From positions 1 to 15,189 of the forward strand of contig JBHJHK010000090.1 in NCBI GenBank assembly GCA_050330975.1: a stretch of 15,189 bases of DNA, written 5' to 3'. This DNA comes from Candidatus Competibacterales bacterium. GTDB taxonomy: Bacteria; Pseudomonadota; Gammaproteobacteria; Competibacterales; Competibacteraceae. Shown piece after piece: positions 1 to 15,002 of the stretch. Both the position numbers and the translations under genes were made by a program. Every line of letters starts with the position of its first letter. The first letter of the stretch is position 1. The notes below the pieces were generated by a model. That model saw only the letters and a program-made list of their open reading frames with translations, made no database searches and was not told the origin of the DNA.

Positions 1-1
1 T

Positions 2-208
2 GTCGACGCCCACTTCGCCGCCGCTGCCCTGGCAAGGCTCAACGGTCCCCAACGGCGGGTGATTTACCTCGGAGTGGTGGAGGGTTTGAGCCACCGAGAA
101 ATCGCCCAGTGCCTCCAGTTGCCCCTGGGCACTGTCAAGACCCACCTGCGGCGCGGTTTGCTGCAGATTCGCAACCTTCTTTGCAACGCGACCCAACGGC
201 GATCATGA
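2..208 (+). CDS. ECF-type (sigma-70 family) RNA polymerase sigma factor, C-terminal fragment (5' end outside window)
   Basis: Frame 2 translates to ...RVIYLGVVEGLSHREIAQCLQLPLGTVKTHLRRGLLQIRNLLCNATQRRS*, a textbook sigma-70 region 4.2 helix-turn-helix. Stop TGA 206-208 overlaps the next gene's ATG (ATGA). Confidence 0.75.
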   Translation, partial: VDAHFAAAALARLNGPQRRVIYLGVVEGLSHREIAQCLQLPLGTVKTHLRRGLLQIRNLLCNATQRRS

Positions 209-1098
209 ATACCGCTCGCCCCTCCGTCGATGCCGCGGCATTGACCCGTCTGCTCCAGCTCCAGGCCGATGGGGCCACCGAGGGCTTGGGGCCTGTAGAG
301 CAGGCCGAACTCGCCGAGCTCTTGGCGCGCTATCCCCAAGTGGATCCTCGGGGGTTGGACCGGGCCGCCGCCGCGGTGGATTTGGCCCACCTCGGCGGCG
401 AGGAGTCCTTGCCCCGGGATTTGGCGCTGCGCATCGCCGCTGCGGCGCCGCGGCATTTGCCCACTGCTCCCCCGGGCGCGGGCTCGGCCGTGGCCGGTCG
501 AGGTCTTGGGAGAGGACGCTTTCCCCGCCCCTCGAGGGGCGTTCCCTGGGCCCTGGCGGCGAGCCTTGGGGTGGCTGTGGTGGGCTTTTGGTTGCTGGGC
601 GTCTTGTGGTGGACCGCCCCCGGCGGTTTGGCGCCCCCGGCGGCTCCGTCACCCGCCACCGTGGTGGCGCGCTTTGAAGCGCGCCATCGAGACACCGTGG
701 CCGTCCCCCTGAGGGCTCCCCAGGAGCCCATGGGCCAACGGCCCGTGGGCGAGCTGCTGTGGAGTGCCAAGGCCCAGGGGGGGTATCTGCGCTTGACGGG
801 CCTTGGGGCCAACGATCCCCGCCGCAGTCAGTACCAGCTGTGGCTCGTCGACCGTCGCCGTCCGGGGCCTTACCCAGTGGATGGCGGGGTGTTCGACGTG
901 CCCGCTGGAATTCAAGAGACTCTAGTGGCCATTCGCCCCGCGTTGAGGGTCTTGGATCTCGCCGCCGTGGCCATTACCCGAGAACCCCCCGGCGGGGTGG
1001 TGGTATCTGAAGGTGCCCCCGTGGTGGCCACGGCCAATCTCCCGGCCAATTCCCACGACTCGCCAGACGATTTGCCACCTGGGAAAGAAAACAACTAG
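205..1098 (+). CDS. anti-sigma factor, RskA-like (N-terminal sigma-binding region, one TM helix, C-terminal anti-sigma-K RskA-type periplasmic domain)
   Basis: ATG 205 overlaps the sigma-factor stop (translational coupling). One hydrophobic TM segment, WALAASLGVAVVGFWLLGVLWW. C-terminal ...LWSAKAQGGYLRLTGLGANDPRRSQYQLWLVDRRRPGPYPVDGGVFDV... resembles the RskA C-terminal domain. The track ORF 109..1098 is an out-of-frame 5' extension into the sigma gene. Confidence 0.7.
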   Translation: MNTARPSVDAAALTRLLQLQADGATEGLGPVEQAELAELLARYPQVDPRGLDRAAAAVDLAHLGGEESLPRDLALRIAAAAPRHLPTAPPGAGSAVAGRGLGRGRFPRPSRGVPWALAASLGVAVVGFWLLGVLWWTAPGGLAPPAAPSPATVVARFEARHRDTVAVPLRAPQEPMGQRPVGELLWSAKAQGGYLRLTGLGANDPRRSQYQLWLVDRRRPGPYPVDGGVFDVPAGIQETLVAIRPALRVLDLAAVAITREPPGGVVVSEGAPVVATANLPANSHDSPDDLPPGKENN

Positions 1099-1122
1099 TG
1101 GGTGAAATTTTTGTGACAGTGC

Positions 1123-1150
1123 TTGTCAATAACGGCGAGCTGTTTATACT
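1123..1150 (+). promoter_or_regulatory. candidate sigma-70 promoter (TTGTCA - 16 bp - TATACT)
   Basis: -35-like TTGTCA at 1123-1128 and -10-like TATACT at 1145-1150 lie in the only AT-rich stretch (1099-1250) downstream of the anti-sigma gene. Predicted by eye only. Confidence 0.3.
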
Positions 1151-1369
1151 ACGCATCTAATTCGTGTTGAACACTTTATTGGCCATAGGTATCCGTCGTG
1201 GGTAAAGATTTGAACCAACACTATATATCTCTCCCAGCCCCCAAGGGCTGTCGTCGTGGGCGGTTGTGGCCCTCGGCTGTGAGACCTATGCCGGTCTTTG
1301 CCCAGTCCCGGGCCTTTTAGCGCCGACCTTCTCTCCAGGGGGGCGGCAGGTAGATCCCCCGTGCGATGA

Positions 1370-1413
1370 CGACATCCCCGGCGGGTCACCGACCCCCGGG
1401 GATGTCGCTTTTT
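1370..1413 (+). terminator. rho-independent terminator (12-bp GC-rich stem, 14-nt loop, CTTTTTG tail)
   Basis: cGACATCCCCGG (1370-1381) pairs perfectly with CCGGGGATGTCg (1396-1407) and is followed by CTTTTTG (1408-1414). No protein gene ends immediately upstream. Confidence 0.55.
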
Positions 1414-1612
1414 GAGGCGGCGACTGGGCTGCCTGGAATTTGCAGAATCCACCCTCTGCAAATGACCCTTTCTGGGGCAGTGGCAAAAGCCATTGCCGCC
1501 AACCGAGCAGGAAGGGGCGGAGAAAATCAGCGGTTCCGATTCTGAATATCGGACTGGCACAGGGGGGTTGCGTTCTCCTTTTGTGTACCGATCCTCGCGC
1601 CTTTTCGTGCCC

Positions 1613-1684
1613 TTGGATATAGCTCATCGGTAGAGCATTCGACTCATACTCGAAATGTGGCGGGTTCGATTCCCGTTATCCGAC
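1613..1684 (+). tRNA. tRNA with CAT anticodon (elongator Met, or Ile2 if lysidine-modified); CCA not encoded
   Basis: Manual cloverleaf: acceptor TTGGATA/TATCCGA (7 bp, one G-U), D-arm GCTC-ATCGGTA-GAGC, anticodon arm TTCGA-CTCATAC-TCGAA (U33, CAT at 34-36, A37), variable ATGTG, T-arm GCGGG-TTCGATT-CCCGT, discriminator C1684. The U1-A72 closing pair is unusual. Anticodon stem lacks the three G-C pairs of an initiator tRNA. Confidence 0.6.
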
Positions 1685-1985
1685 CATCTGAAAAATGGTA
1701 CTAACCTGTGGAGCTATTCCATCCGCTGGGCGTCGGTTAACGCCTAACCCGGGAGCCAGCTCCCGCGGTGGCCGTTGGGGGGGTGGGGCCAATGCCCCCG
1801 AGCCTCAGCGGTCGACCGCAGCGCCTGTGCCGCCTGCGCGGCGGTTGAGCGCCGGGGTCCAGCTCGAGACGAGGTGTCGTCCCGCTCCGGCAGGGGATGA
1901 TGGGCTCGCCCCGGTGCCCGACCCCGGTCCCAGCCGCCGCCCGCAGCGTCGGCGCGGGGCTGGCTCCCTCATTATTCGCTAGAGG

Positions 1986-3158
1986 ATGGCCGTCATGTTG
2001 GGCTTACAACGCTATGTTATCGCGCAGCACGAGCGCGCCTTTTTATACCGCAGTGGTCGCTTTGAGGCCGTGCTAACCCCGGGGGTCTACAGCTACCTCG
2101 ATCCCTTGGGACGGCTGACCGTCGAGCGCTTCGACCTCAACCGGCCCGCCTTCAGCGGCCACCGGTTGGAGGACTATTTTCTCCAGGAGCGGCCCGACCT
2201 GGTCGAGGCCCATTTCCAGGTGGTGGAGGTGGGGCCCGAGGCCGTGGGGCTGGTATACCACAACGAACGGTTGGTGAACTTGTTGCCGCCCCGCAGCCGT
2301 CAGCTGTTCTGGCGGGGGCCCACCCAGGTGCGGGTGGACACCACGCCTTTGGGGGGGGATCTTCGGGTGCCCAAGGACGTGGCGGTGCTGCTGCGGGACC
2401 CTCGCCATCCGTTCTTGCGCCAGGCCCTCGTCAACGCCGCCGTGTTTGCCGAGGTGGGCCAACACCAGGTGGGGCTACTCTTTGTGGACGGCGCCCTGCG
2501 GGAGACCTTGAGCCCTGGGGTATACGCCTTCTGGGGTTACCAAAACAGCGTCAAGGTGGAACTCATCGACGTGCGCCTCCAGCCCTTGGAGGTGTCGGGG
2601 CAGGAGATCCTCACCAAGGACAAGGTGTCGTTGCGGGTCAACTTGTCGGCCAGCTACCGGGTGGTGGACCCCGTGGTGGCCCGGGAGGGGGTGGCGAACT
2701 TCAAGGATTTTCTCTACCGAGAATTGCAGTTCGCCCTGCGCTGGGCGGTGGGCAACCGCACCCTAGAGGAGCTTTTGACCGACAAAGAGCGGGTGGACGC
2801 CGTGGTGAATGAAGCCGTGGTCCCCAAGGTCGCCGAGCACGGTTTGGAACTCAAGGGCGTCGGGATCAAAGATGTGATTTTGCCCGGGGAGATGCGCACC
2901 ATCTTCAACCAGGTGGTGGAGGCCGAGAAGGCGGCCCAAGCCAACGTCATCAAGCGTCGGGAGGAGACGGCGGCCACCCGTTCGCTCCTCAACACCGCCA
3001 AGTTGATGGAGGAAAACCCCTTGTTGCTGCGCCTCAAGGAGCTGGAGATGCTGGAAAAGGTCACCGACAAGGTGGAGAGCCTCACGGTGTTTGGCGGCTT
3101 GGAAGGGGTGCTGCAAGAGCTGGTGAAGATCCGCCCCAACACCGTGGCTGGGCGCTGA
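1986..3158 (+). CDS. SPFH/band-7 (stomatin/prohibitin/flotillin/HflKC-like, slipin-type) protein without N-terminal TM; N-terminal beta-module present three times
   Basis: 390-aa ORF with clean codon structure. The C-terminal 200 aa is typical SPFH (...KDKVSLRVNLSASYRVVDPVVAREGVANFKDF...KGVGIKDVILPGEMRTIFNQVVEAEKAAQANVIKRREETAATRSLLNTAKLMEENPLLLRLKELEMLEKV...). ATG 1995 (SD AGAGGA 1981-1986, 8-nt spacer) may be the real start rather than ATG 1986. Confidence 0.85.
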   Translation: MAVMLGLQRYVIAQHERAFLYRSGRFEAVLTPGVYSYLDPLGRLTVERFDLNRPAFSGHRLEDYFLQERPDLVEAHFQVVEVGPEAVGLVYHNERLVNLLPPRSRQLFWRGPTQVRVDTTPLGGDLRVPKDVAVLLRDPRHPFLRQALVNAAVFAEVGQHQVGLLFVDGALRETLSPGVYAFWGYQNSVKVELIDVRLQPLEVSGQEILTKDKVSLRVNLSASYRVVDPVVAREGVANFKDFLYRELQFALRWAVGNRTLEELLTDKERVDAVVNEAVVPKVAEHGLELKGVGIKDVILPGEMRTIFNQVVEAEKAAQANVIKRREETAATRSLLNTAKLMEENPLLLRLKELEMLEKVTDKVESLTVFGGLEGVLQELVKIRPNTVAGR

Positions 3159-3194
3159 TGGCGCTCTGAATTTTTGACAGCGGGAAATGCTTCA

Positions 3195-3227
3195 CCCGGG
3201 GCTTTAGGGATGAACCCCGGGTTTTTT
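3195..3227 (+). terminator. rho-independent terminator downstream of the SPFH gene
   Basis: CCCGGGG (3195-3201) pairs with CCCCGGG (3215-3221) around a 13-nt loop and is followed by TTTTTTGTG. It lies 37 nt after stop codon 3158. Confidence 0.55.
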
Positions 3228-3246
3228 GTGTCCGGCCCAAGGGAAC

Positions 3247-3423
3247 TCAGGCCCGGGAGGTTTCCTGGTGTGCTGTGGCGGCAAGGGTGGCTTTGATGCA
3301 TGCCGCCGTGGTGTCGATGGCCGCCAGCTTCAGAGCCAACCGCTGCCGCCGCGGCCGGGAGCAGACCAGCTTGGCCAGTAGTGCGCGGGCTCCCTGGGGG
3401 GTGGTGAGGTTGTAGGCATTCAT
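3247..3423 (-). CDS. small hypothetical protein (58 aa), divergent from the His-rich gene and with an operator copy in its upstream region
   Basis: Reverse strand reads MNAYNLTTPQGARALLAKLVCSRPRRQRLALKLAAIDTTAACIKATLAATAHQETSRA*. GGAGAG Shine-Dalgarno sits 5 nt upstream of the ATG at 3423-3421. The listed track ORF starts further upstream at a weaker start. No recognisable domain. Confidence 0.4.
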   Translation of the reverse strand: MNAYNLTTPQGARALLAKLVCSRPRRQRLALKLAAIDTTAACIKATLAATAHQETSRA

Positions 3424-3449
3424 GGCAGCTCTCCAAATTTGGGTTGGAT

Positions 3450-3482
3450 TTAGATCAATTCTAAAAATGAGAACGGTTCGCA
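3450..3482. promoter_or_regulatory. operator-like motif copy 1: TTAGAT-caa-TTCTAA-aaa-TGAGAA-cgg-TTCGCA (two adjacent 6-3-6 palindromes)
   Basis: Read directly. First palindrome matches the Irr ICE box TTTAGAA-N3-TTCTAAA. Second palindrome TGAGAA-N3-TTCKCA is loosely Fur 7-1-7-like. It lies 27 bp upstream of the - strand gene start. Confidence 0.55.
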
Positions 3483-3551
3483 AAAAATCATGGAAGCAGT
3501 ATAACCGTCTGTAACCTCAGTACAAGATCTCAGCGGGGATTGGGGGTGAAT

Positions 3552-3584
3552 TTAGAATGATTCTATTAATGAGAGTGATTTGCA
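3552..3584. promoter_or_regulatory. operator-like motif copy 2: TTAGAA-tga-TTCTAT-taa-TGAGAG-tga-TTTGCA
   Basis: Same 6-3-6-3-6-3-6 architecture as copy 1 (about 30/41 identities over the extended alignment). It lies 30 bp upstream of the His-rich gene start (3614). Confidence 0.55.
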
Positions 3585-3613
3585 TAACGCCTAGGGCTTG
3601 GGGTAGCTTTTAA

Positions 3614-4105
3614 ATGAAGCGTCTATCATCGTCCCCAACGGTCGATTCGCGGCGCCGAATCGCCTCCCTCGCCACTGATCCTTCCGAGAGTGCCCACTCA
3701 TCGGCGGAGGCCCACGGCGGCCCCCATAGCCACGGTCGGGGCCACGGTCAGGGCCACGGCCAAGACTATGACCACAGCTACAGCTACGGCTACGGCTACC
3801 TTCCCCAACCCATGGCCATGGGACCCTTGACCCGAGTCGGCGTCGCCGGGGCGTTGGTGGGGGCCAGCGCCAGTGCCGCCCGCCACATGCGCCAGGTCCA
3901 GGCCATGGAGATGTCCCCCGTGGAGGCTGCCTTACACACCGTGGGCGACGCCTTAAAGGTGGGCGTTGCCACCGCCGCTGCCAAGGTGGCCGTGGACACG
4001 GTGCGGGGTGGGCCGGCGTTGTCCACCATGGTGATGGTGGCGGCGAGTACCGCGGTGCTATTCGCCCTGGAGGGGCGCTCGACTCAGAGCAAGGGCGATG
4101 AGTAA
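3614..4105 (+). CDS. His/Gly/Tyr-rich putative metal-binding protein with C-terminal two-helix Ala/Gly/Val-rich region (MamC/Mms13-like pattern)
   Basis: 163 aa. N-terminal ...AHGGPHSHGRGHGQGHGQDYDHSYSYGYGY..., then RVGVAGALVGASASAARHMR...VEAALHTVGDALKVGVATAAAKVAVDTVRGG...MVMVAASTAVLFAL. Operator copy 2 is 30 bp upstream. Stop TAA 4103-4105 overlaps the next ATG. Confidence 0.6.
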   Translation: MKRLSSSPTVDSRRRIASLATDPSESAHSSAEAHGGPHSHGRGHGQGHGQDYDHSYSYGYGYLPQPMAMGPLTRVGVAGALVGASASAARHMRQVQAMEMSPVEAALHTVGDALKVGVATAAAKVAVDTVRGGPALSTMVMVAASTAVLFALEGRSTQSKGDE

Positions 4106-4301
4106 TTATTACTCTGGGTATTACCCGCCGCCGGGTTACGGGCCCGCGCCGAATGATCAACCCCCCCCGGGTTCGCCACCCCCCGGCGCCAACCCAGGTG
4201 CGCCACCCCCCGGCACGCCGGGGGTGCCCAACCGCACGGGGCGCTTTGTCACCGGCCTGGTGGTGGGGGTGGCCGCCGCCTACTTCCTCAGCAACGAGTA
4301 G
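4098..4301 (+). CDS. Pro/Gly/Tyr-rich small protein with C-terminal TM anchor (67 aa)
   Basis: MSNYYSGYYPPPGYGPAPNDQPPPGSPPPGANPGAPPPGTPGVPNRTGRFVTGLVVGVAAAYFLSNE. ATG 4098 overlaps the previous gene by 8 nt (translational coupling). Low complexity, so it could also be a frame artefact of the GC/CCC-rich DNA. Confidence 0.45.
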   Translation: MSNYYSGYYPPPGYGPAPNDQPPPGSPPPGANPGAPPPGTPGVPNRTGRFVTGLVVGVAAAYFLSNE

Positions 4302-4363
4302 GCGCAAAACAACCTCATCCGCACCGTGGTGAAGAAGACGAACCCGCCCCCGACGGCTTTAGC

Positions 4364-6172
4364 GTGGTGGGCCACGGTCTGTTGGCGTTGCTGACCCTGG
4401 CATTGCCCGGGAGTCTGCGGGCTTGGCTCACCTACGCCAACATCGCCCCAGTGGTATTCAAGGGGGTGGATACGCTGATTCACGAGGGCCTCAAGGTGGC
4501 GGTACTGGACGCCGTGGCCCTGAGCGTCACCGCCGGCCGGGGGGAGTTTTTCACCACCAACCTCACCAAGACCTTGCTGGTGACCGGGGAATACCTGGAA
4601 CACCACACCGCCCGGGAATCGGAGTCTTTGATCGTGGATTTGTTGGCCCCGGCGGCGGGCTCGGTGTGGGTGGAGCGCGAGGGCGAAGTGCGGTCGTGCC
4701 CCGCCCGGGAACTGGTGGTGGGGGACACGGTGTGGGTGGGGCCCGGGGAGACCATCGCCGTCGACGGCGAGATCCTCCACGGCGAAGCCCTGATCAACCA
4801 GGCCTCCATCACCGGTGAAGACGTGCCCGTGCGGCGTTTTACCGGGGAGCGGGTGCTGTCGGGCACCGTGGTGGAGGAGGGCAACGTGCGCCTTCGGGCC
4901 CTCCAGGTGGGGGAGGACACCACCACCGCCCGCATCAACCGCTTCTTGCTGGAGTCCCTCCAGAGCCGCTCCAACACCCAACAGGTGACCCAGGCCATGG
5001 CCGACCGCCGGGTGCTGATCACCCTGGGGGTGGGGAGCGGGGCCTTTGCCCTGACCCGGGATCCCCGGCGGGTGGCGGCGGTATTCCTGGTGGACTACGG
5101 CTGCGTCCTCAAGCTCTCCACCCCCATCAGCTTCAAGGGGGGCATGTACCGGGCGGCCCGCCACGGGGTGCTCCTCAAGGGGGCCAAGGCCATCGAAGAC
5201 CTGGCCACCGTGGACGCCGTGGCCTTCGACAAGACCGGTACCCTCACCCGGGGCGAACTGGACGTCACCCAGGTGATCAGCTTTGAGCCCACCCTCGACG
5301 GCGACGCCCTCCTGGCCCTGGCGGCCGCCCTGGAGGAACACGCCCGCCACCCCATCGCCAGCGCGCTAGTGGCCGCCGCCGCGGCCAGGGGCTTGGACCA
5401 TCCCCCCCACGGCGACGTGGAGCACCTGGTGGCCCGGGGGGTGCGCAGCACCTACCGCGGCCGCGGGGTATGGGTCGGCAGCCGCGCCTTTGTGGAGGGG
5501 GAGGGGGGGGTGGATTTCTCCCACCTCGACGACCGCATCCACGCCCTGGAAGCCGCCGGCCAGATGGTGTTGCACCTGGCGTGGGGCGACCGTCCCCTGG
5601 GGCTCATCGCCCTCAAAGACGAGCTGCGCCCCGAGGCCCGCCGCCTGCTGAACCGCCTGCGGCGCCAGGGCGTCCAGCGCTTGGTGTTGCTCACCGGCGA
5701 CCGCACCTCCAAGGCCGAGGCCCTGGGGGCTCGCCTGCCCCTGGACCAGGTCCACGGCGATTTGAGCCCCGAGGGCAAGGCGGCCATCATCCGCCGCCTC
5801 CAGGCCCGGGGGCGGCGGGTGGCCTTCGTCGGCGATGGGGTCAATGACGCCCCGGCCCTGACCACCGCCGACGTGGGTATCGCCATGCCCCGGGGCGCCG
5901 ATGTTGCCCGCCACATGGCCGATGTGGTCCTCACCGAGGACCATCTAGGGGGAGTCGCCGCCGCCCGCCAGGTGGCGGTGGATACCATGGGGCTGATCCA
6001 CGGCAACATTCGCTTCGCCGAGATCTTTAACTCCGGCGTCATGGCCGGTGCCGCCCTCGGCCTTTTGTCTCCCGTGGCCAGCGCCGTACTCCACAACGGC
6101 TCCACCCTGGCGGTGATGGCCCGCGCCGTGGCCAGCACCACCCGGCGGCCCTTGGAGCGCTTGGGCGGGTAG
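4364..6172 (+). CDS. atypical short P-type ATPase of the P1 (heavy-metal/KdpB-like) lineage; no N-terminal metal-binding domain; YGC in place of CPC
   Basis: Actuator TGE motif (SITGEDVPV), phosphorylation motif DKTGTLT, HP motif (EEHARHPIASALV) and hinge VGDGVNDAPAL are all present. The TM before DKTGT reads DYGCVLKLSTPISF where P1B pumps have CPCALGLATP. Only ~600 aa, ~2 TM before the A-domain. GTG 4364 is the first in-frame start after the upstream stop and has no clear SD. Confidence 0.8.
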   Translation: MVGHGLLALLTLALPGSLRAWLTYANIAPVVFKGVDTLIHEGLKVAVLDAVALSVTAGRGEFFTTNLTKTLLVTGEYLEHHTARESESLIVDLLAPAAGSVWVEREGEVRSCPARELVVGDTVWVGPGETIAVDGEILHGEALINQASITGEDVPVRRFTGERVLSGTVVEEGNVRLRALQVGEDTTTARINRFLLESLQSRSNTQQVTQAMADRRVLITLGVGSGAFALTRDPRRVAAVFLVDYGCVLKLSTPISFKGGMYRAARHGVLLKGAKAIEDLATVDAVAFDKTGTLTRGELDVTQVISFEPTLDGDALLALAAALEEHARHPIASALVAAAAARGLDHPPHGDVEHLVARGVRSTYRGRGVWVGSRAFVEGEGGVDFSHLDDRIHALEAAGQMVLHLAWGDRPLGLIALKDELRPEARRLLNRLRRQGVQRLVLLTGDRTSKAEALGARLPLDQVHGDLSPEGKAAIIRRLQARGRRVAFVGDGVNDAPALTTADVGIAMPRGADVARHMADVVLTEDHLGGVAAARQVAVDTMGLIHGNIRFAEIFNSGVMAGAALGLLSPVASAVLHNGSTLAVMARAVASTTRRPLERLGG

Positions 6173-6186
6173 AAAAAAGGTTGTTA

Positions 6187-6217
6187 TTAGAAAGCTTCTA
6201 AAAGAGAATGGTTCTCA
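6187..6217. promoter_or_regulatory. operator-like motif copy 3: TTAGAA-agc-TTCTAA-a-AGAGAA-tgg-TTCTCA
   Basis: Both palindromes are perfect or near-perfect; the middle spacer is 1 nt instead of 3. It lies 76 bp upstream of the HMA_2-like gene (6293), immediately after the ATPase stop. Confidence 0.55.
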
Positions 6218-6292
6218 ACAACTTTTGTCTTCTCGCCTTTGCGGTAGCTTCGGCGCTCTATTACCCCACTAAAACGTCCAGGAGAGTCCAGC

Positions 6293-6664
6293 ATGAAACC
6301 CTATGTTCACCACGTGCCCGGTCGTCTGCGCTTTAGTGCCCGCAGCTTGGTCCGTCGTCCCGCCGCCCTGGAGGCCCTGCGGGAAGCGTTGTACGAGTGC
6401 GAGGCCGTAGAGAGCGTACGCACCAATCCCCGGGCTGGCTCCATCACCGTGGAATACGACCCAAAAGGCACCACCCAGCGGGCGTTGCTAGATGTGATCC
6501 ACGCCGAGCAGGCGGCCATTGCCGGACCCGCACCCGCGGTGGGCGTCATCTCGCCAGCTGTCCAGCACAAGGCCGGCACGGTATTTGGCCAGGCGCTCTT
6601 TGGGGTAGTACTGGAAAAGACTCTTCAGCACTCGGTGACCTCTTTGGTGGCGGCGCTGCGCTGA
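6293..6664 (+). CDS. stand-alone HMA_2-like (cysteine-less heavy-metal-associated-like) domain protein
   Basis: MKPYVHHVPGRLRFSARSLVRRPAALEALREALYECEAVESVRTNPRAGSITVEYDP... The HHxPGRxRF...V(R/E)VNPxxGSxxxxYD pattern is the N-terminal domain found fused to some P-type ATPases. SD GGAGAG is 6 nt upstream of ATG 6293. Confidence 0.6.
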   Translation: MKPYVHHVPGRLRFSARSLVRRPAALEALREALYECEAVESVRTNPRAGSITVEYDPKGTTQRALLDVIHAEQAAIAGPAPAVGVISPAVQHKAGTVFGQALFGVVLEKTLQHSVTSLVAALR

Positions 6665-6726
6665 CGGAGCTCATCTCTTTCCAGGTCGCTATCCCGTCCC
6701 TCCGGTGCAAAAAACATCCATGAACA

Positions 6727-7788
6727 ATGTGTGATCTCTCCGCCGCCCCGCCGTCCCGCGACCCCGATTCCACCATTTCCTTTGCCCCGCGTGACAGCGC
6801 CCCGTTGGAGCCCAACGGCGGTGGCTGCGGGCGACGGCGCAAGCTTTGGGAGCTGGAGCCCCACTGCCACTGCGCGGTATTGGGCACTTGCTTGCCGGTC
6901 AAAGTGTTGCGGCAAATCTACACCCAGATCCAGGGAGAGGCCCCGGTTCACCTGAGCGATTACCAAATCCACAGCTTGTTCGTCAAAGAGGCCAGTGCTC
7001 CCTGTGCCGCCATTCGCCGGGTCCACAAGGCCCTGGAAGCCCGCTACCGGGTTGCCGTCCAGCGCTTTGCCAAGGCCAAGGATGAGGCCGAGTTGACGGC
7101 CTTGTGGGAAGTCGCGGTGGTCAACGAGGAGGAGGTGGCAGGCGCCTACTGGGCCCTCATGACCCATCCGCGCCTCAGTAAAATCCTGGCCGCCCGGGCC
7201 TTTGGCGACGTCCATATGCTCTCCCACCTGGCTGGACGTTGTCGTCAGCGCAGCGCCCGGCAACAGCAGCAGCTGGAGAGGCGTTGTCGGGAACTCCAAA
7301 GCCAGTTGGCCGAGCGCAGCACGGCGTTGTGTCGACTGCAGCGGGAGCGCCACGACGAGCGCCGGACCCTGGAAAAGGCCCAGCAAGCCCTCCGGGAGCG
7401 AGAGGCCACCATCGCTTATCTCGAGGCGCAACTGGTGGCGTTGGAGACGACGACGGAACTCGCCGACCTCCGCCGCCAGCTGGCCGCCGCCGAGCGCCGG
7501 GCCCAGTGGGCCGAGGGGCGGCTGGCCGCCCTGGCTTCTGAGGTGCCGCCCGCCGTCGAGGCCGAGCCCGAAACCATATCTCCCCCCCGGTGCCGGTCAA
7601 TCCCGAGCCCCCGGCATTGCCCCCTTGCCCCACCCCACCGAATTTGTGTGGTCGCTGTATTCTCTACGTCGGCGGTCGCCAGGGCTGCCGCGCCCGGCTC
7701 CAGCGCCTGGTGGAGGCCGCCAACGGCCGCTTTCTCTACCACGACGGCGGCCGGGAAGACGCCTCGGCCAGGCTCGGGGAGCTTCTAG
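6727..7788 (+). CDS. Cys-rich N-terminus plus long coiled-coil; probable N-terminal part of a DUF2325 protein, reading frame lost at the C7 tract 7582-7588 (nominal stop 7786-7788 is out-of-frame read-through)
   Basis: CGRRRKLWELEPHCHCAVLGTC motif, then an Ala/Arg/Glu/Gln-rich heptad region (...RQQQQLERRCRELQSQLAERSTALCRLQRERHDERRTLEKAQQALREREATIAYLEAQLVALETT...). After the poly-C tract, frame 1 turns into low-complexity junk. Start codon uncertain (no SD at 6727). Confidence 0.5.
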   Translation: MCDLSAAPPSRDPDSTISFAPRDSAPLEPNGGGCGRRRKLWELEPHCHCAVLGTCLPVKVLRQIYTQIQGEAPVHLSDYQIHSLFVKEASAPCAAIRRVHKALEARYRVAVQRFAKAKDEAELTALWEVAVVNEEEVAGAYWALMTHPRLSKILAARAFGDVHMLSHLAGRCRQRSARQQQQLERRCRELQSQLAERSTALCRLQRERHDERRTLEKAQQALREREATIAYLEAQLVALETTTELADLRRQLAAAERRAQWAEGRLAALASEVPPAVEAEPETISPPRCRSIPSPRHCPLAPPHRICVVAVFSTSAVARAAAPGSSAWWRPPTAAFSTTTAAGKTPRPGSGSF

Positions 7789-7964
7789 AGCGGGCCGATG
7801 CGGTGATTTGCCCTTTGAACTGCATCAGTCACAACGCCGTCAACGGGGTCAAGCGCCGCTGCCGCCGGGCGGCCAAGCCGGTGGTCATGGTGAAGAGCCC
7901 CAGCCTCGCCGCCCTGAACGCCGCCCTCCACCGCCTGCCCAGCGCCGAGGCGCCCCCACCGTGA
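7590..7964 (+). CDS. DUF2325 domain ORF (C-terminal part of the split gene above)
   Basis: ...PPALPPCPTPPNLCGRCILYVGGRQGCRARLQRLVEAANGRFLYHDGGREDASARLGELLERADAVICPLNCISHNAVNGVKRRCRRAAKPVVMVKSP... matches the Cys-x2-Cys...Cys-P-x-N-C-I-S-H pattern of DUF2325. GTG 7590 lies immediately 3' of the C7 tract and has no RBS of its own. Confidence 0.55.
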   Translation: MPVNPEPPALPPCPTPPNLCGRCILYVGGRQGCRARLQRLVEAANGRFLYHDGGREDASARLGELLERADAVICPLNCISHNAVNGVKRRCRRAAKPVVMVKSPSLAALNAALHRLPSAEAPPP

Positions 7965-8931: not shown

Positions 8932-8964
8932 AAAAAATAATTAATTTAATGAGAATCGTTAGCA
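8932..8964. promoter_or_regulatory. operator-like motif copy 4: degenerate AT-rich first half plus TGAGAA-tcg-TTAGCA
   Basis: AAAAAA-taa-TTAATT-taa-TGAGAA-tcg-TTAGCA, about 70 bp upstream of the imelysin start. This is the only AT-rich island in the 8.9-9.0 kb region. Confidence 0.45.
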
Positions 8965-9035
8965 ATCTTATTTCAGATTTACCCCAGGGGTCCCCCTGCG
9001 TGAAACCCCCCTACATGAAACGAGGAGTGTGCGCT

Positions 9036-10412
9036 ATGTCGAGTGATGGTCGTGCCCTATGGCTGGGTTGTGCCCTGTGGCTGGGCGTGGGGGGCGCGTT
9101 TTGCGCCCACGGTGCAGAAGTGAGCCGCGAAGCCGTGGTGGCGCAAAACGCCGCCATCGCCTTTGCCGTGTACAGCGACAGCGCGGAGACGGCCAAGGCC
9201 CTCCAGGCCGCCGTTGACACCCTGGTGGAAGCTCCCACGGAGGCCCACCTGGCGGCCGCCCGGGAGGCGTGGCTCGCGGCCCGAGAGCCCTATGGCCAGT
9301 CGGAAGTCTACCGGTTTCGCAACGGCCCCATCGACGCCCTCACCGTCGCCGGGGAAATGATCCCCGGCGAGGGGCGCGAGGGCTATATCAATGCCTGGCC
9401 CCTGGACGAGGCGTTGATCGACTACGTGGTGGAGGTGGACGGCAACGCCCGCAACGAGGACCAACCGGTGACCTCGCTGATCGCCGACGAACGCTTTGAG
9501 ATCACCCCCGCCAACCTCAACGCCATGAACGAGTTGGGGGAAAACGAAGCCAACGTCGCCACGGGTTACCACGCCATCGAGTTTTTACTCTGGGGTCAGG
9601 ACCTCAACGGCGACCGCGCGCCCCACGACGGCCGTCGGCGGCGGGACGACACCCCGGGGCAGCGGCCGGTGACGGACTACAGGGCCGACGCCGACTGCAC
9701 CAGCGGCGCCGAGTCGTCCCCGGCGGCGATTTGCGAGCGCCGGGGCCAGTACCTCCGGGCCGCCGCCGCGTTATTGGTGGAGGACTTGACCCGCATCGCC
9801 GCCGCCTGGGACCCCGACGGTGGCGCCCACTACCAGCGCTTTACCGCCGGTGAGGACGAGGGACGCGCCTTGTTGAAGATCCTCATCGGCATGGGCAGCC
9901 TGAGCTATGGCGAGCTGGCCGGCGAGCGGATTTTGGTGGCGTTGGCCGCCAACTCCCAGGAAGACGAGCACTCCTGCTTTGCCGACAACACCCACCGGGA
10001 CATTTACCTCAACGCCCTGGGGATCCAGAACAGCTACCTCGGTCGCTACACCCGGGTGGACGGCGCCGAGGTCACGGGCCCCGGTATCGACGCCCTGCTT
10101 CGGGCCCAGGGTCACACCGAGCTCGCCGACCGGCTCAAGGCCCAGCTGGCCGCCACCATGGAGGCCGCCCAGGTGATCGTCGACAAGGCCGAACAGGGGA
10201 TGCCCTTTGACAGGCTCATCGAGCAGTACCCCGGGGAAGACAAGGACGGCCGGCCGATCCTCAACGCCAACATGGCCAATAACATCCTGGTGAACGACGT
10301 GGTGGTGGCCCTCCAGCGCCAAACCCGCACCATCGAGGACGCCATCGCCGCGCTGTTTGGCGAGGGCATAGACTACGACATCGAGGACAGCCCGGCCTTT
10401 GCCGGTGGCTAG
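9036..10412 (+). CDS. imelysin-like protein (peptidase M75 / IrpA / ICMP family; iron-regulated periplasmic protein)
   Basis: Contains the imelysin HxxE-type motif context GYHAIEFLLWGQDLNG and GYINAWPLDEALIDYV, with an N-terminal signal-like hydrophobic segment. ATG 9036 has a GAGGAG SD 8 nt upstream; ATG 9015 is also possible. Confidence 0.8.
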   Translation: MSSDGRALWLGCALWLGVGGAFCAHGAEVSREAVVAQNAAIAFAVYSDSAETAKALQAAVDTLVEAPTEAHLAAAREAWLAAREPYGQSEVYRFRNGPIDALTVAGEMIPGEGREGYINAWPLDEALIDYVVEVDGNARNEDQPVTSLIADERFEITPANLNAMNELGENEANVATGYHAIEFLLWGQDLNGDRAPHDGRRRRDDTPGQRPVTDYRADADCTSGAESSPAAICERRGQYLRAAAALLVEDLTRIAAAWDPDGGAHYQRFTAGEDEGRALLKILIGMGSLSYGELAGERILVALAANSQEDEHSCFADNTHRDIYLNALGIQNSYLGRYTRVDGAEVTGPGIDALLRAQGHTELADRLKAQLAATMEAAQVIVDKAEQGMPFDRLIEQYPGEDKDGRPILNANMANNILVNDVVVALQRQTRTIEDAIAALFGEGIDYDIEDSPAFAGG

Positions 10413-10471
10413 AAACCATAGCAACGGCCATGACGGCGGGCGCTGAAATCGCTCGCCCGAGGAGGTGTCCC

Positions 10472-12050
10472 ATGTTCCCGAGGCGTCTGTCGAGCCTGGC
10501 TGTGGCCGCGGTCATCGCCGCCCAAGTCCCAGCCGTCGAGGCCTTGGCGGTGGGAGCCGATGGCGCCCCCCCCTGGGCGTTCGACCCGTCGGAGGTCTAC
10601 CCCGGGGGCGCTGCCACCGCGGAGGTTTTCAACGAACGGGCCTATTCCCAGTTTCCCCCGGGGTTGGGTTTCATCGACCAGGGGAGTTTTAAGCGGGGCG
10701 ATCACCTGTTTCGCGGGGTACACAGGGGGTTGGGTCCTCTGTACAACGCCCGCAGTTGCCAGGGATGCCACGTCCACGACGGCCGCGGCCATCCCCCGAG
10801 CCATGGCGACGAGACCATGGTGTCGATGTTTCTGCGCCTCAGCGTCCCCGGGGTGGGGCCCCACGGCGGCCCGCGCCCCGAGCCCCGCTACGGCGACCAG
10901 CTCCAGACCTTCGCCATGGCCGGCCCCGGGGGCGAGGGCCACAGTTTTGTCGACTACGAGACGATCCAGGGTCAATACCCCGACGGCGAGCCCTTTGAAC
11001 TGCGCCGGCCGATTTACAAAGTCCGGGCCTTGACCGAGGGGCCCCTGGCGCCGACGGTGATGTTTTCCCCTCGGGTGGCGCCGCCGGTGTACGGTTTGGG
11101 CCTCATTGAAGCCATCCCCGCCGCCGCCATCGAAGCCCGGGCCGACCCCCGTGATCGCGACGGCGACGGCATCTCCGGGCGGGTCAACCGGGTGTGGGAC
11201 GCCGTGGCCGGCCGCGCCGCCGCCCCGGGTCGGTTTGGCTACAAGGCGGCCTCCCCCAGTTTGCTGCTACAGCTAGCCGGGGCCTACCGCGGGGATATGG
11301 GGGTCACCAATGAGAGCAGGCAAGTCACGAAGGGAATGGGGACGTACCTACCGCGGGGATATGGGGGTCACCAATCCCCTGTTCCCCGAGGAGTCCTGTA
11401 GCCCGCTGCAGATCACCTGTCGGGAACAAGCCCGGGAGGAACCCAGTGCCCGACCCAACGCCACCGCCCTGGAATTGGCCCTCGTGGAATTTTACAACCG
11501 CACCTTGGCGGTGCCCCGGCGCCGGGACGCCGACGACCCGGTGGTGTTGGCGGGCAAGGGCCATTTTCACCAAACGGGCTGTGTCGGCTGTCACACCCCC
11601 CGCTACGAGACCGGTCCCTTGGTGGGCTCGGCCCTGGGGGAGATCAACGGCCTGTTCCTCGACCCCGAGGCCGAGCCCCGGGAGATCGAGGTGTTGTCCC
11701 GCCAGACCATCTGGCCCTACACCGACTTGCTGCTCCACGACATGGGGGGCGAATGTCGGGCGGTGACCGAGGAGACCCCGGGGGTATGGGTCCAGCGCTG
11801 TACGGGCCTCGCCGACGGCCGCCCGGTGTTCGACGCCTCGGGGAGCGAGTGGCGCACCCCACCGCTGTGGGGCATCGGCTTGACCCAGACCGTCAATCCC
11901 CGGGCGGGATTCCTCCACGACGGCCGGGCGCGCACCGTGGAGGAGGCGATTTTGTGGCACGATGGCGAGGCCAGGGCCGCCAAAGAGGGCTTTATGGCGT
12001 TGCCCCGGGCGGCCCGGGCCGCCCTGCTGCGGTTTGTGGAGTCGTTGTAA
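10472..12050 (+). pseudogene. DUF1111 di-haem cytochrome c (di-haem peroxidase-like 'thiol oxidoreductase') paralog A, frame broken by a 64-bp insertion
   Basis: Track ORFs 10430..11401 and 11310..12050 are the two halves. Two CxxCH motifs (CQGCH, CVGCH). Removing 11312-11375 restores a continuous ...AYRGDMGVTNPLFPEESCSPLQITC... frame homologous to paralogs B and C. Start ATG 10472 has a GAGGAGG SD. Confidence 0.7.
11283..11375. repeat. perfect 29-bp direct repeat (CCTACCGCGGGGATATGGGGGTCACCAAT) flanking a 35-bp unique segment
   Basis: Copies at 11283-11311 and 11347-11375. The intervening GAGAGCAGGCAAGTCACGAAGGGAATGGGGACGTA has lower GC than its surroundings. Net insertion is 64 bp (+1 frame). 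Confidence 0.9.
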
Positions 12051-13472
12051 ATGTACCATTGGGTCGTCGCGGGACTGTTGGCTGCGGGCCTGGTGGGAGG
12101 GCCTTGGGCGTGGGGGGCGGATATCCCGGCCCTCGACCCCCGGGAGGCCTACCCCGGAGGCGAGGCCACGGCGAGGGCCACCCGGGGCCCCCTCCACTGG
12201 CGCCTGGCGCCGAATTTGGACCTGGCGGCCCAGGGCCAAGCCCTGGTGGGCCACGGCTTTTTCTCCGACCCGTGGGTGATGGCACCGGCCTCCACCACCG
12301 CCCGGGACGGCCTGGGGCCCTTGTACAACGCCCGGGCCTGTACCAGCTGCCACGCCGACGGCGGCCGGGGACGCGTTCCCCCCGGGGGTCCCTGGGTGTC
12401 TTTGGTGTTGCGCCTGCGGCCGTCCCCCCGGGGGGCCATGCCCTACGGCGACCAGCTCCAGCCCCTGGGGGTGGGACAGCCCGGGGAGGGCCACTTGCAG
12501 GTGAGCTATACCCCGCGTCCGGGTCACTACCCCGACGGCACCCCCTACACCCTCTACGTCCCGCGCTACACCGTCGTCGATACCGTCGCCGATACCGTCG
12601 CCGATACCGTCGCCGATGGGACCCCCGACTCGCCGAACCCCGGCTCGCCAAAGCGCCTCCCCGGCCCCGCCTCGGCGCGGCTGGCCCAGCCCCTCTACGG
12701 CCTGGGGCTGTTGGAGGCCATTCCCCCCGGGGTCATCGAAGCCCGAGCCGACCCCGGTGATCGCGACGGCGACGGCATCTCCGGGCGGGCGGCCCAGGTG
12801 GTGGAGCTCGCCAGCGGCGCCCGGCGGTTGGGACGCTTTGGCCACAAGGCCCGCCATCCCACGGTGCACCAGCAGGTGGCCCACGCCTTTGCCAACGACA
12901 TCGGCATCACCAACCCCCTCTACCCCGCCCAGCCCTGCGCCCCCGCCCAAGTCCGCTGCCTAGCCGGGCCCCACGGCCCCGGGCCGGGCACCGACCACGA
13001 GATCGACGCCGAGCGCCTGGCCGCCGTGACCCGCCTCACCCAGAGCCTCGGTCCGCCGCGGCGCCCGGACTGGGATGACCCCGCGGTGGTGGCGGGGCGG
13101 GCCCTGTTCCACCGGGTGGGATGCGCCACCTGCCACACCCCCCGCTTTGCCCTCGACCCCGGGACCGACCCCGCCGGCCCGGGCCAGGTGATCTGGCCCT
13201 ACAGCGACGTGTTGCTCCACGACATGGGGGACGAGCTGGCCGACGGGGTCGCCGAGGGGGACGCCTCGGGGCGGGAATGGCGCACGCCGCCCCTGTGGGG
13301 TTTGCGGGCCGTGGACCCCCGCCACGCCCGCTACCTCCACGACGCCCGCGCCCGGACCCTGGAGGAGGCGATTTTGTGGCACGGCGGCGAGGGCGCCGCC
13401 GCCCGGGAGGGCTTTCGCCGGCTGACGGCGACCCAGCGCCGGTTGCTGCTGCGGTTTTTGGCCTCCCTTTAA
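12051..13472 (+). CDS. DUF1111 di-haem cytochrome c paralog B
   Basis: CTSCH and CATCH haem-binding motifs; conserved DRDGDGISGR, GRFGHKA, EWRTPPLWG and EEAILWHGGEG blocks shared with paralogs A and C. ATG 12051 abuts the stop of A. Signal-like N-terminus. Confidence 0.8.
   Translation: MYHWVVAGLLAAGLVGGPWAWGADIPALDPREAYPGGEATARATRGPLHWRLAPNLDLAAQGQALVGHGFFSDPWVMAPASTTARDGLGPLYNARACTSCHADGGRGRVPPGGPWVSLVLRLRPSPRGAMPYGDQLQPLGVGQPGEGHLQVSYTPRPGHYPDGTPYTLYVPRYTVVDTVADTVADTVADGTPDSPNPGSPKRLPGPASARLAQPLYGLGLLEAIPPGVIEARADPGDRDGDGISGRAAQVVELASGARRLGRFGHKARHPTVHQQVAHAFANDIGITNPLYPAQPCAPAQVRCLAGPHGPGPGTDHEIDAERLAAVTRLTQSLGPPRRPDWDDPAVVAGRALFHRVGCATCHTPRFALDPGTDPAGPGQVIWPYSDVLLHDMGDELADGVAEGDASGREWRTPPLWGLRAVDPRHARYLHDARARTLEEAILWHGGEGAAAREGFRRLTATQRRLLLRFLASL
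12571..12617 (+). repeat. in-frame 12-bp tandem repeat (GATACCGTCGCC, three full units plus partials) encoding (DTVA)n
   Basis: Units at 12579-12590, 12591-12602 and 12603-12614. They encode ...YTVVDTVADTVADTVADGT... in a loop that is absent from paralogs A and C. Confidence 0.85.
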
Positions 13473-13613: not shown

Positions 13614-15002
13614 TTGAGACCGATGCCTCTTGGCGCCCTCGGGGGGATCGCCCTCCTCGGCGCCGGCCTCTGGACGACGGGGTGGACGGCGCCGGGGGCG
13701 TTGTCTCCCCCCTCGGTGGCGGTGGGGGCGGCGTTGTTCAAGGCCGACCACCCCAAGGCCGGCCCGCTCCTCAACGCCGCCGCCTGTAGCGCCTGCCACG
13801 CCGGCGGGGGTCGGGGCGACGCTCCGGCGGCCAGTGGTCCCTTGCCGGCGGCGGTGGTGTTGCGCTTGAGTGCCCCCGCCCGCCGCCGCACCGGAGAACC
13901 GGCCCCCGATGTCCGCTACGGCGACCAGCTCCAACCCCTATCCCACCACCCCCACCACCCCGGGCTGGGACTGGGGGAGGGACGCATCGACGTGGTGTAC
14001 CGCCCCGTGGAGGGTCGTTATGCAGACGGCACCCCCTACACCCTGCGGGCTCCGGTGTACCGGGTGCGCGGTCTGGCCCACGGCCCCCTGGGGGAGGGGG
14101 TGACCTTTTCGGTGCGCAGCGCCCCGGCGGTGGTGGGGCTAGGGGCCCTCCAGGCCATTCCGGCCACGGAACTCGCCGCCCGCGCCGACCCCTTTGACGC
14201 CGACGGCGACGGCATCTCCGGGCGGATCAACTGGGTGTGGGACATCTTAGAAGCTCGCCACGCCCCGGGGCGCTTTGGCCACAAGGGGGAGATGCCCTCG
14301 TTGGTCCAGCAGATCGCCGGGGCCCTGTGGAGCGACATGGGGGTCACCAGTCCTCTGTTTCCCTGGCCGGTGTGCACCGCCGTCCAGGGGGATTGTTTGG
14401 CCCGGGTCGATTTCGCCGTGCTCGACGCCGACGGCGGCCAGTTGGCGGCCCTAGAGGCCTTTCACCTCGCCCTGCCGCCCCCCGCCCGGCGCGGCTATCC
14501 CCAAGACCCCGAGGTGCGCCGGGGGGCCGAGTTGTTCGAGGGGTTGAATTGCAGTACCTGCCACACGCCTCGCCAGCGGGTGGGTCCCATCCGCCCGTCG
14601 CCCCTGGCCAGTGGCTTGCAGCGGACGGGGCGCGGCGCCGTACCCCGCCCCCCCGGGGGGATAATTTGGCCCTACACCGACCTATTGCTCCACGATATGG
14701 GGGGGGACTGCGACCCCGTGGTCCAAGAGGGGGACGCCTGGGTCCAGCGCTGCACCGGGCTCGCCGACGGTCGGGTGGTATTCGACGCCTCGGGCCGAGA
14801 ATGGCGCACCCCGCCCCTGTGGGGGCTGGGGTGGGCCAAGGCCCTCAATCCCGAGATGGGCTACCTCCACGACGGCCGCGCCCGGACTTTGGAAGAAGCG
14901 ATCCTGTGGCACGGCGGCGAGGGCACCGCGGCGAGGGAGGGATTCCGCCAGCTGACGGCGGCCCAGCGCCGGGCGCTGCTGCGGTTTTTGGCTTCCCTTT
15001 GA
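13614..15002 (+). CDS. DUF1111 di-haem cytochrome c paralog C
   Basis: CSACH and CSTCH motifs; same conserved blocks as A and B. TTG 13614 is preceded by GAGGAGGA 13601-13608 at 5-nt spacing; ATG 13623 is the alternative. Stop 15000-15002. Confidence 0.8.
   Translation: MRPMPLGALGGIALLGAGLWTTGWTAPGALSPPSVAVGAALFKADHPKAGPLLNAAACSACHAGGGRGDAPAASGPLPAAVVLRLSAPARRRTGEPAPDVRYGDQLQPLSHHPHHPGLGLGEGRIDVVYRPVEGRYADGTPYTLRAPVYRVRGLAHGPLGEGVTFSVRSAPAVVGLGALQAIPATELAARADPFDADGDGISGRINWVWDILEARHAPGRFGHKGEMPSLVQQIAGALWSDMGVTSPLFPWPVCTAVQGDCLARVDFAVLDADGGQLAALEAFHLALPPPARRGYPQDPEVRRGAELFEGLNCSTCHTPRQRVGPIRPSPLASGLQRTGRGAVPRPPGGIIWPYTDLLLHDMGGDCDPVVQEGDAWVQRCTGLADGRVVFDASGREWRTPPLWGLGWAKALNPEMGYLHDGRARTLEEAILWHGGEGTAAREGFRQLTAAQRRALLRFLASL

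Follow-up and report, generated by a model that had tools for sequence, protein, structure and literature searches.

Does a P-type ATPase that seems to lack both its N-terminal metal-binding domain and its transport motif represent a new kind of cation pump? The question is raised by a 15,189-nucleotide stretch, hereafter the window, on contig JBHJHK010000090.1 of a Candidatus Competibacterales bacterium (assembly GCA_050330975.1), in which such an ATPase gene is followed by a small gene for an HMA_2-type protein. A first-pass annotation had taken the pair for a possible new pump subtype, with its domain split off as a trans-acting partner. We consider it likely that these genes belong to a ferrosome (fez) gene cluster with a divergent, partly degenerate FezB-type P1B-6 pump that lost its head by deletion, and that the small protein is a separate component. 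The ferrosome system was first described in 2020-2022; in the characterised relatives, FezB and small GxxxG membrane proteins are required to build a membrane-bounded granule that stores iron phosphate. The result is mainly a correction, since the odd features of the locus appear to come down to a one-residue misreading of the family motif and a deletion scar.

The ATPase belongs to the P1B-6/FezB clade

The ATPase gene (positions 4364-6172, plus strand) is a fezB-type P1B-6 P-type ATPase gene that starts with GTG and encodes 602 residues without an arginine-rich (R-rich)/HMA_2 N-terminal domain. Its length and catalytic signatures were annotated correctly; TGE lies at residues 150-152, DKTGT with the phosphorylation site at 289-293 (nucleotides 5228-5242), HP at 329-330, and GDGVNDAPAL at 490-499. 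In Pfam, the open reading frame (ORF) matches E1-E2_ATPase and Hydrolase. In NCBIfam, it scores 462 bits with TIGR01525, the profile of P1B heavy-metal ATPases (cut-off 346), so that the motifs and the score together identify a P1B ATPase. KdpB reaches only 137 bits, and the stretch STPISFKGG, which had been likened to KdpB, is the [GS]TPVAFKSG conserved throughout the family. The top homologues among 5.8 billion clustered proteins are 50-54% identical and ~700-720 residues long, and many of them have a precomputed HMA_2 match at the N-terminus. Their alignment shows a family-wide N-terminal HxLPGRLRxR/HMA_2 domain and the sequence VDY-S-C-A-LKL-[GS]-TP in transmembrane helix 4 (TM4). Exact look-ups of the 602-residue product and of the 67-residue product encoded just upstream gave no match.

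TM4 of the window ATPase reads D-Y-G-C-V-L-K-L-S-T-P at residues 244-254 (DYGCV, nucleotides 5093-5107), in which YGC had been seen in the place of CPC. The position was right, as the HMMER alignment to A. fulgidus CopA sets y-g-c under C-P-C, but the unpredictable ion specificity concluded from it was not: the second Cys of CPC corresponds to the invariant Cys of the FezB family, and the motif is of the SCA type, shifted by one residue. SCA is the TM4 motif of P1B-6 ATPases (PMC13460109), and Grant et al. (bioRxiv 10.1101/2020.01.10.902569) defined P1B-6/FezB by D[Y/F]SCA and HNxxT, with an N-terminal R-rich motif (RxR/RxRxR) in the majority of FezB homologues. YGC is the family D-Y-S-C-A, with Ser changed to Gly and Ala to Val, read one residue early, and DYGCV is a conservative variant of D[Y/F]SCA. 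The triplet is SCA in 98 of the 120 homologues, ACA in 17, SCI in 2, and ACS in 1, and wider representatives add ACP, SCG, SCV, and VCS; GCV is a new combination at two variable positions. Because ~18% of the undisputed clade members also depart from D[Y/F]SCA, the literal string does not define the clade. What the window ATPase retains is the core of D-[Y/F]-small-C-x and LKLxTP, with D244, Y245, C247, K250, and L251 in invariant columns of a 78-sequence alignment that includes the window. In the same alignment, C247, N556 in TM5, and H577, N578, and T581 are invariant, and the latter three belong to the TM6 motif HNGST (residues 577-581, nucleotides 6092-6106), an instance of HNxxT.

A family profile built from 112 full-length homologues gave the window ATPase 846 bits, compared with 676-1156 bits for the FezB-like genes in the fetched loci, at most 528 bits for the DYHTG/DFVTG types, and at most 470 bits for the CPC/SPC types. 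In a distance-based neighbour-joining tree of 106 P1B ATPases over 541 columns, the D[YF]xCx clade, with the window ATPase nested in it, was recovered in 100/100 bootstraps; the ATPase sits on a long branch within a gamma-proteobacterial subclade (73/100). The pump is therefore divergent, as had been said, but it is not a new subtype; the first-pass annotation had itself held that placement inside a characterised subclass would speak against one, and this is where the pump falls. Nor is its specificity unpredictable from the known subclasses, as it lies inside P1B-6/FezB and the SCA class already stood in the list given there. The FezB proteins of Desulfovibrio magneticus, Shewanella putrefaciens, Rhodopseudomonas palustris, and Clostridioides difficile share with the window pump the clade, D-Y-x-C-x, HNxxT, and the catalytic motifs; Shewanella and Competibacter homologues served as stand-ins for the experimentally studied FezB. 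Compared with FezB, the window pump has GCV for SCA, differs at 17 of 158 conserved positions, stands behind a truncated upstream partner gene, and is without the R-rich/HMA_2 N-domain, which all other complete relatives examined have kept. A scan of genome contigs yielded only three FezB-like loci, the generic GDGVNDAP pattern having swamped the output, and a scan of metagenome contigs found no close relative, the top match being 46% identical. The cluster representative P0122 was ruled out as a relative; it is an unrelated 57-residue protein and a clustering artefact.

The AlphaFold2 model of the ATPase, predicted from the 78-sequence alignment, has a mean predicted local distance difference test score of 84.6 and a predicted TM-score of 0.74, and its M4 helix is unwound at residues 242-245. 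The top Foldseek superposition is the E1 state of CopA (7r0g_B), with a TM-score of 0.84 over 640 columns. CopA and ZntA of the P1B-1/P1B-2 classes (7r0g, 3rfu, and 4umv; 29-31% identity) are thus alike in fold and catalytic motifs; in contrast, the window pump has neither CPC nor a CxxC domain, and the ligands in TM5/TM6 (N...HNxxT) and the genomic context differ. M. tuberculosis CtpC, a P1B-6-like pump, has an R-rich N-terminus and the hallmark N...HNx(S/T) between TM5 and TM6 (PMC13460109). Set beside the window pump by description, it represents a related R-rich P1B branch with the TM5-TM6 hallmark in common, but CtpC retains CPC and the N-terminal domain and exports Zn/Mn. In addition, the statement that the first TM pair is lacking is not borne out in that form, as the model predicts helices at residues 2-10 and 16-41 ahead of the M1/M2 equivalents. 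The membrane region of the model comprises eight helices, the first two short or amphipathic, and Kyte-Doolittle hydropathy is indecisive on the count; the literature topology of P1B-6/FezB, based on TOPCONS, has six helices. If the topology is reduced at all, this would characterise the family as a whole and not the window protein in particular.

Probable loss of the N-terminal domain by deletion

The absence of an N-terminal domain, noticed in the first pass, is borne out. DKTGT stands at residue 289 compared with a median of ~385 in the 120 homologues, which leaves ~96 N-terminal residues missing, and the family profile aligns to the window ATPase only from hidden Markov model (HMM) position 84 of 705. 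The ATPase has no R-rich N-terminus, and no frame of the window contains another HMA_2 signal besides that at 6293-6664. In a six-frame search of 17 FezB-like loci, the profile match of every FezB whose contig includes the 5' end begins at HMM position 3-6, in two cases through a frameshift; two exceptions among the 17 are fragments cut by contig ends, and only the window begins at position 84. Similarly, when 1.84 billion representatives were searched with phmmer, all complete FezB-like proteins of at least 40% identity had an extension of ~95-125 residues before the region that matches the window. A 617-residue protein (P0050) that looked like a homologue without the N-domain proved to be a frameshift artefact with the HMA_2 domain just upstream in another frame, and the same is true of locus L093. 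Public FezB genes at L003 (1711-2000) and L093 (3748-4419) look N-terminally short, with the HMA_2 domain in the adjacent frame, and short FezB calls in databases are not to be trusted at face value.

The gene directly upstream indicates how the domain was lost. It encodes a shortened Pro-rich GxxxG protein of 67 residues (4098-4301, plus strand; GLVVG) and ends at a premature TAG at 4299-4301. Of the 17 FezB-like loci searched, 15 have a member of this gene family directly 5' of fezB, often overlapping it. The members share the module RFxKGxxxGAAAAYLLTNxxVQxxxIKxxVKxWSxLQGGVEExKERFxDAEAEL, of which the window copy keeps only the first 19 residues before the TAG. The 12 codons past the stop (4302-4337, plus strand; AQNNLIRTVVKK) are remnant coding sequence, and the point where their homology ends marks the left edge of the deletion. 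Reading through the TAG lifts the score with the upstream-gene profile from 21.6 to 34.6 bits, a value reached by 0 of 200 shuffles of the tail, and the rest of the conserved tail is absent past position 4337. Since the 12 codons past the stop still match the family profile, the TAG is a recent lesion. The deletion junction and the untranslated leader of the truncated fezB follow at 4338-4363 (plus strand), where a scan for start codons and Shine-Dalgarno sequences found no in-frame ATG, GTG, or TTG upstream of GTG 4364 back to the stop at ~4154. An acidic 'linker remnant' upstream of this GTG, suggested by the HMM alignment, was rejected; its gain of only 2 bits is matched by 99 of 300 shuffles.

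The N-domain was probably lost through deletion and not moved elsewhere, and the losses of the N-domain and of the upstream tail are best explained by a single deletion together with a nonsense mutation, the simplest account of both. Such a deletion, of roughly 0.4-0.6 kb by our estimate, would have run from within the upstream gene, whose 3' tail is gone, across the intergenic spacer, and would have taken ~85-95 codons from the 5' end of fezB, the start codon among them. The remaining fezB could then be started only at GTG 4364, at the first hydrophobic helix. The gene directly 5' of fezB, which has a conserved coiled tail, is a near-universal partner in proteobacterial clusters, and its small GxxxG-helix protein looks like an obligate partner of the pump. 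The locus also offers a natural deletion of the N-domain that can be used to probe the role of the R-rich domain of FezB.

The 123-residue HMA_2 protein is a separate fez component

The free-standing R-rich/HMA_2 gene (6293-6664, plus strand) starts with ATG behind a good Shine-Dalgarno sequence (AGGAGA) and encodes 123 residues that begin with MKPYVHHVPGRLRF and include HHVPGRLRF; the protein belongs to the FezC/FezD class. HMA_2 (PF19991) scores 38.2 bits (cut-off 30, E 1.7e-9), whereas the classical HMA domain (PF00403) reaches 18.3 bits against a cut-off of 24.8. The protein has no CxxC, a single Cys at residue 36, and a C-terminal GxxFGxALxG helix. Both this gene and the operator copy between it and the ATPase gene had been recognised in the first pass and are real, but the domain was not split off the pump. 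Among the compared fez loci (L003, a metagenome contig; L084, a Competibacter metagenome-assembled genome (MAG); L085, Shewanella sp. UCD-KL12; L086, a European Nucleotide Archive contig), phmmer found end-to-end matches of the 123-residue protein to free-standing genes at L003 4799-5179 (57.7 bits), L084 4189-4557 (52.0 bits), and L086 8755-9105 (51.9 bits), all beside FezB genes with an N-domain of their own; the FezB N-termini score at most 35 bits. A six-frame profile search of the 17 loci located free-standing HMA_2 ORFs beside domain-bearing FezB in L003, L005, L006, L084-L087, and L091-L093. A word-indexed search with the 123-residue protein returned only itself and one 35%-identical match.

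The free-standing HMA_2 proteins and the FezB N-termini have a common layout of an R-rich motif, a βαβ-type core, a linker, and a hydrophobic helix, and none has a CxxC; they are paralogues. According to Grant et al. (bioRxiv 10.1101/2020.01.10.902569), GxxxG proteins and R-rich proteins, FezC among them, are further products of fez clusters. The 123-residue protein resembles the FezC/FezD-class proteins in the HHxPGRLR motif, in the HMA_2 score, and in its end-to-end alignment with L003, L084, and L086; compared with D. magneticus FezC as described, it is without two clear transmembrane helices. As a fez component it is ordinary and conserved in its own right, and its gene has an operator and a ribosome-binding site to itself.

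Composition of the fez cluster

Upstream of the Pro-rich GxxxG gene lies a gene for a MamC-like membrane protein of 163 residues (3614-4105, plus strand) with a GxxxG motif (GALVG), of the FezA/E/G class of ferrosome-cluster proteins. The MamC profile NF038051 scores 41.2 bits (E 1.5e-10), under the equivalog cut-off of 100, so that the protein is MamC-like only; a precomputed match to PF26373 is also on record. In L003, L085, and L086, a MamC-like gene is found at the corresponding place, and the set of MamC-like, Pro-rich GxxxG, FezB, and free-standing HMA_2 genes recurs in L003, L084, L085, and L086. With a GALVG protein, a GLVVG protein, and an R-rich HMA_2 protein beside fezB, the window has the composition of a fez cluster and resembles the known clusters in its MamC-like, Pro-rich GxxxG, and free-standing R-rich/HMA_2 neighbours and in its iron-type operators. 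This extends fez clusters to the Competibacterales, organisms of wastewater interest.

The N-terminus of the MamC-like protein is rich in His, Gly, and Tyr (HGGPHSHGRGHGQGHGQDYDHSYSYGYGY; residues ~30-62, positions 3700-3800), and this stretch could be a metal- or mineral-facing segment.

Operators and regulation

Three operator copies accompany the cluster. Copy 1 (3449-3481), upstream of the fez genes, consists of TTTAGATCAATTCTAAA at 3449-3465, followed by GAGAACGGTTCGC at 3469-3481. Copy 2 (3551-3567; TTTAGAATGATTCTATT) lies 47 nucleotides upstream of the MamC-like gene. Copy 3 (6186-6216), upstream of the HMA_2 gene, consists of ATTAGAAAGCTTCTAAA at 6186-6202 and the perfect palindrome GAGAATGGTTCTC at 6204-6216. 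The palindromes at 3449, 3551, and 6186 resemble the iron control element (ICE) of the regulator Irr, whose consensus in alpha-proteobacteria is TTTAGAA-N3-TTCTAAA (PMC1698941), with 1, 2, and 1 mismatches over the 14 specified bases, respectively; this consensus is alpha-proteobacterial, and the host is a gamma-proteobacterium. By chance, 0.04 ICE-type matches would be expected in place of the three observed, and none of 200 shuffles gave as many as three. Like Irr boxes, the window boxes stand before iron-related genes; they differ in the host and in a second palindrome (GAGAAnGGTTCTC; GAGAAnGGTTCnC) added behind two of the three boxes (3449 and 6186).

The window contains no Irr gene, a search with the E. 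coli Fur-box consensus found nothing in it at up to three mismatches, and the fez loci of the relatives have no ICE-like motif. In C. difficile, ferrosome production is controlled by Fur (PMC13307979). By analogy, with Fur-superfamily-type operators before both transcription units, expression is probably iron-responsive.

Proposed mechanism and fate of the truncated pump

By homology, the pump would be phosphorylated on D289 and would carry cytosolic Fe(II) into the lumen of the granule, with the transport site formed by C247 in TM4, N556 in TM5, and H577, N578, and T581 in TM6. The Fe(II) substrate, like ferrosome formation in this host, would follow from kinship with FezB. Whether the truncated pump is still made and active is the least secure point of our reading, and we put the chances on either side about level.

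Several observations weigh against a functional FezB-type pump shortened by a genuine deletion. The ATPase has DYGCV where the family definition calls for D[Y/F]SCA, and none of ~270 relatives has a G at the first position of the triplet. The window pump is changed at 17 of the 158 positions with at least 95% conservation across the family, compared with a median of 1 such change and never more than 13 in the other members; its changes include E46A, E159F, Y354H, H358R, H375A, and H380E. The latter three belong to a conserved histidine cluster in the nucleotide-binding domain of FezB (H346, H349, H358, H375, and H380; residues 346-380, ~nucleotides 5400-5510), of which the window ATPase keeps only two of five. 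Given such changes, the pump may work differently or no longer work at all. GTG 4364 is not preceded by a Shine-Dalgarno sequence. The right-hand breakpoint of the deletion is unmapped, the supposed linker remnant being no better than shuffles. The closest relative found is at most 54% identical, which leaves the deletion undatable. The junction itself is supported by the window and one 99.87%-identical MAG contig only, and independent Logan contigs (SRR6462993) end at ~4214 and restart at 5503 without spanning it.

These points bear on two alternatives. That the fez cluster is decaying, with fezB a dead remnant that is untranslated or unable to build ferrosomes without the R-rich N-domain and the partner tail, we regard as a serious possibility that falls somewhat short of probable. 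The deletion took the start codon and the ribosome-binding site, the upstream partner gene carries two lesions (the premature TAG and the loss of its tail), no other complete FezB-like protein is without the N-domain, the count of changes at family-conserved sites is the highest of all members, and another nearby gene, the first di-haem oxidoreductase (DHOR) paralogue, is broken in both assemblies. However, the 602-codon frame is intact in DNA of 68-70% guanine-cytosine (GC) content, compared with ~68% for the whole window, and all catalytic and predicted metal-site residues are kept, as are the three operator copies. Conserved sites are changed ~4-fold less than the protein average (~11% vs. 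~48%), which suggests purifying selection through most of the divergence. Moreover, in other P1B pumps the N-terminal domain serves regulation and is not essential (PMC13460109). An assembly artefact, in which fezB is full-length and the upstream gene intact in the true genome but the MAG assembly collapsed or mis-joined the region, seems very unlikely to us. It would account for the breaks of the Logan assembly on either side of the junction, and the window does contain a homopolymer indel (C7 vs. C8 in two other assemblies) that frameshifts the DUF2325 gene. Yet the junction is the same in the window and in contig CAZRVC010000059.1 of GCA_964603305.1 (L001), two near-identical MAG assemblies that agree over positions 1-7588 and beyond them are set apart by 6 substitutions and 2 indels; assembly errors do not typically remove several hundred bases cleanly from the inside of a single-copy region, and a premature TAG with homology past the stop is a point lesion independent of any mis-join.

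The idea of the first pass, a new or unclassifiable P1-type ATPase subtype whose HMA_2 domain was split into a trans-acting gene, is largely refuted and hardly credible now. In its favour, the pump without an N-domain is encoded 120 nucleotides upstream of an HMA_2 protein with the same R-rich motif, the exact GCV triplet was found in no relative, and the C-terminal helix of the small protein aligns with the first hydrophobic helix of FezB. Against it speak the nested position of the pump within P1B-6 and the orthologues of the small protein, which are encoded on their own in at least 10 loci that also have a domain-bearing FezB; the truncation of the upstream gene points to deletion and not to fission. 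It is also unlikely, to a lesser degree, that the FezB without its N-domain still builds ferrosomes with the R-rich/HMA_2 role supplied in trans by the free-standing paralogue, GCV, E46A, and the lost histidines then being marks of a retuned pump; if true, such trans-complementation would make the R-rich domain a modular targeting or regulatory unit. On balance, a fez cluster with a FezB-type pump beheaded by deletion remains the reading that we prefer; family membership, cluster composition, the absence of the N-domain, the truncation of the upstream gene, and the orthology of the small protein are observed.

Neighbouring genes

Downstream of the HMA_2 gene lies a DUF2325 gene (6727-7964, plus strand) that is frameshifted in the window by a C7 run at 7582-7588. 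Both L001 and L002 have C8 at this site, and the frameshift is confined to the window; the difference probably reflects an error of assembly or an indel between strains. A DUF2325 gene also adjoins fezB in the Competibacter genome (L084 9739-11446), where hemP follows, and it may be an unrecognised fez accessory in this lineage. Locus L088 contains, besides a FezB homologue, a second P1B ATPase (754-2967) with an R-rich N-terminus and CPC, which fits the 'FezH' of Grant et al. The antisense ORFs inside the ATPase gene have no Pfam match.

Just upstream of the fez operators, the window carries a Band_7/SPFH (flotillin-like) gene (1986-3158) and a terminator-like hairpin (3150-3166); no such gene stands beside fez in the other loci examined. 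At the far end, an imelysin gene (8949-10412) precedes three tandem DHOR genes. The first of these (10430-12050) is split into two overlapping ORFs that cover positions 54-310 and 291-499 of the Pfam profile, and the same split is called in L001, while the paralogues at 12051-13472 and 13614-15002 are intact. Inside the former of these two paralogues, a 12-nucleotide tandem repeat (ACCGTCGCCGAT) occupies 12570-12617, and L001 has one copy more.

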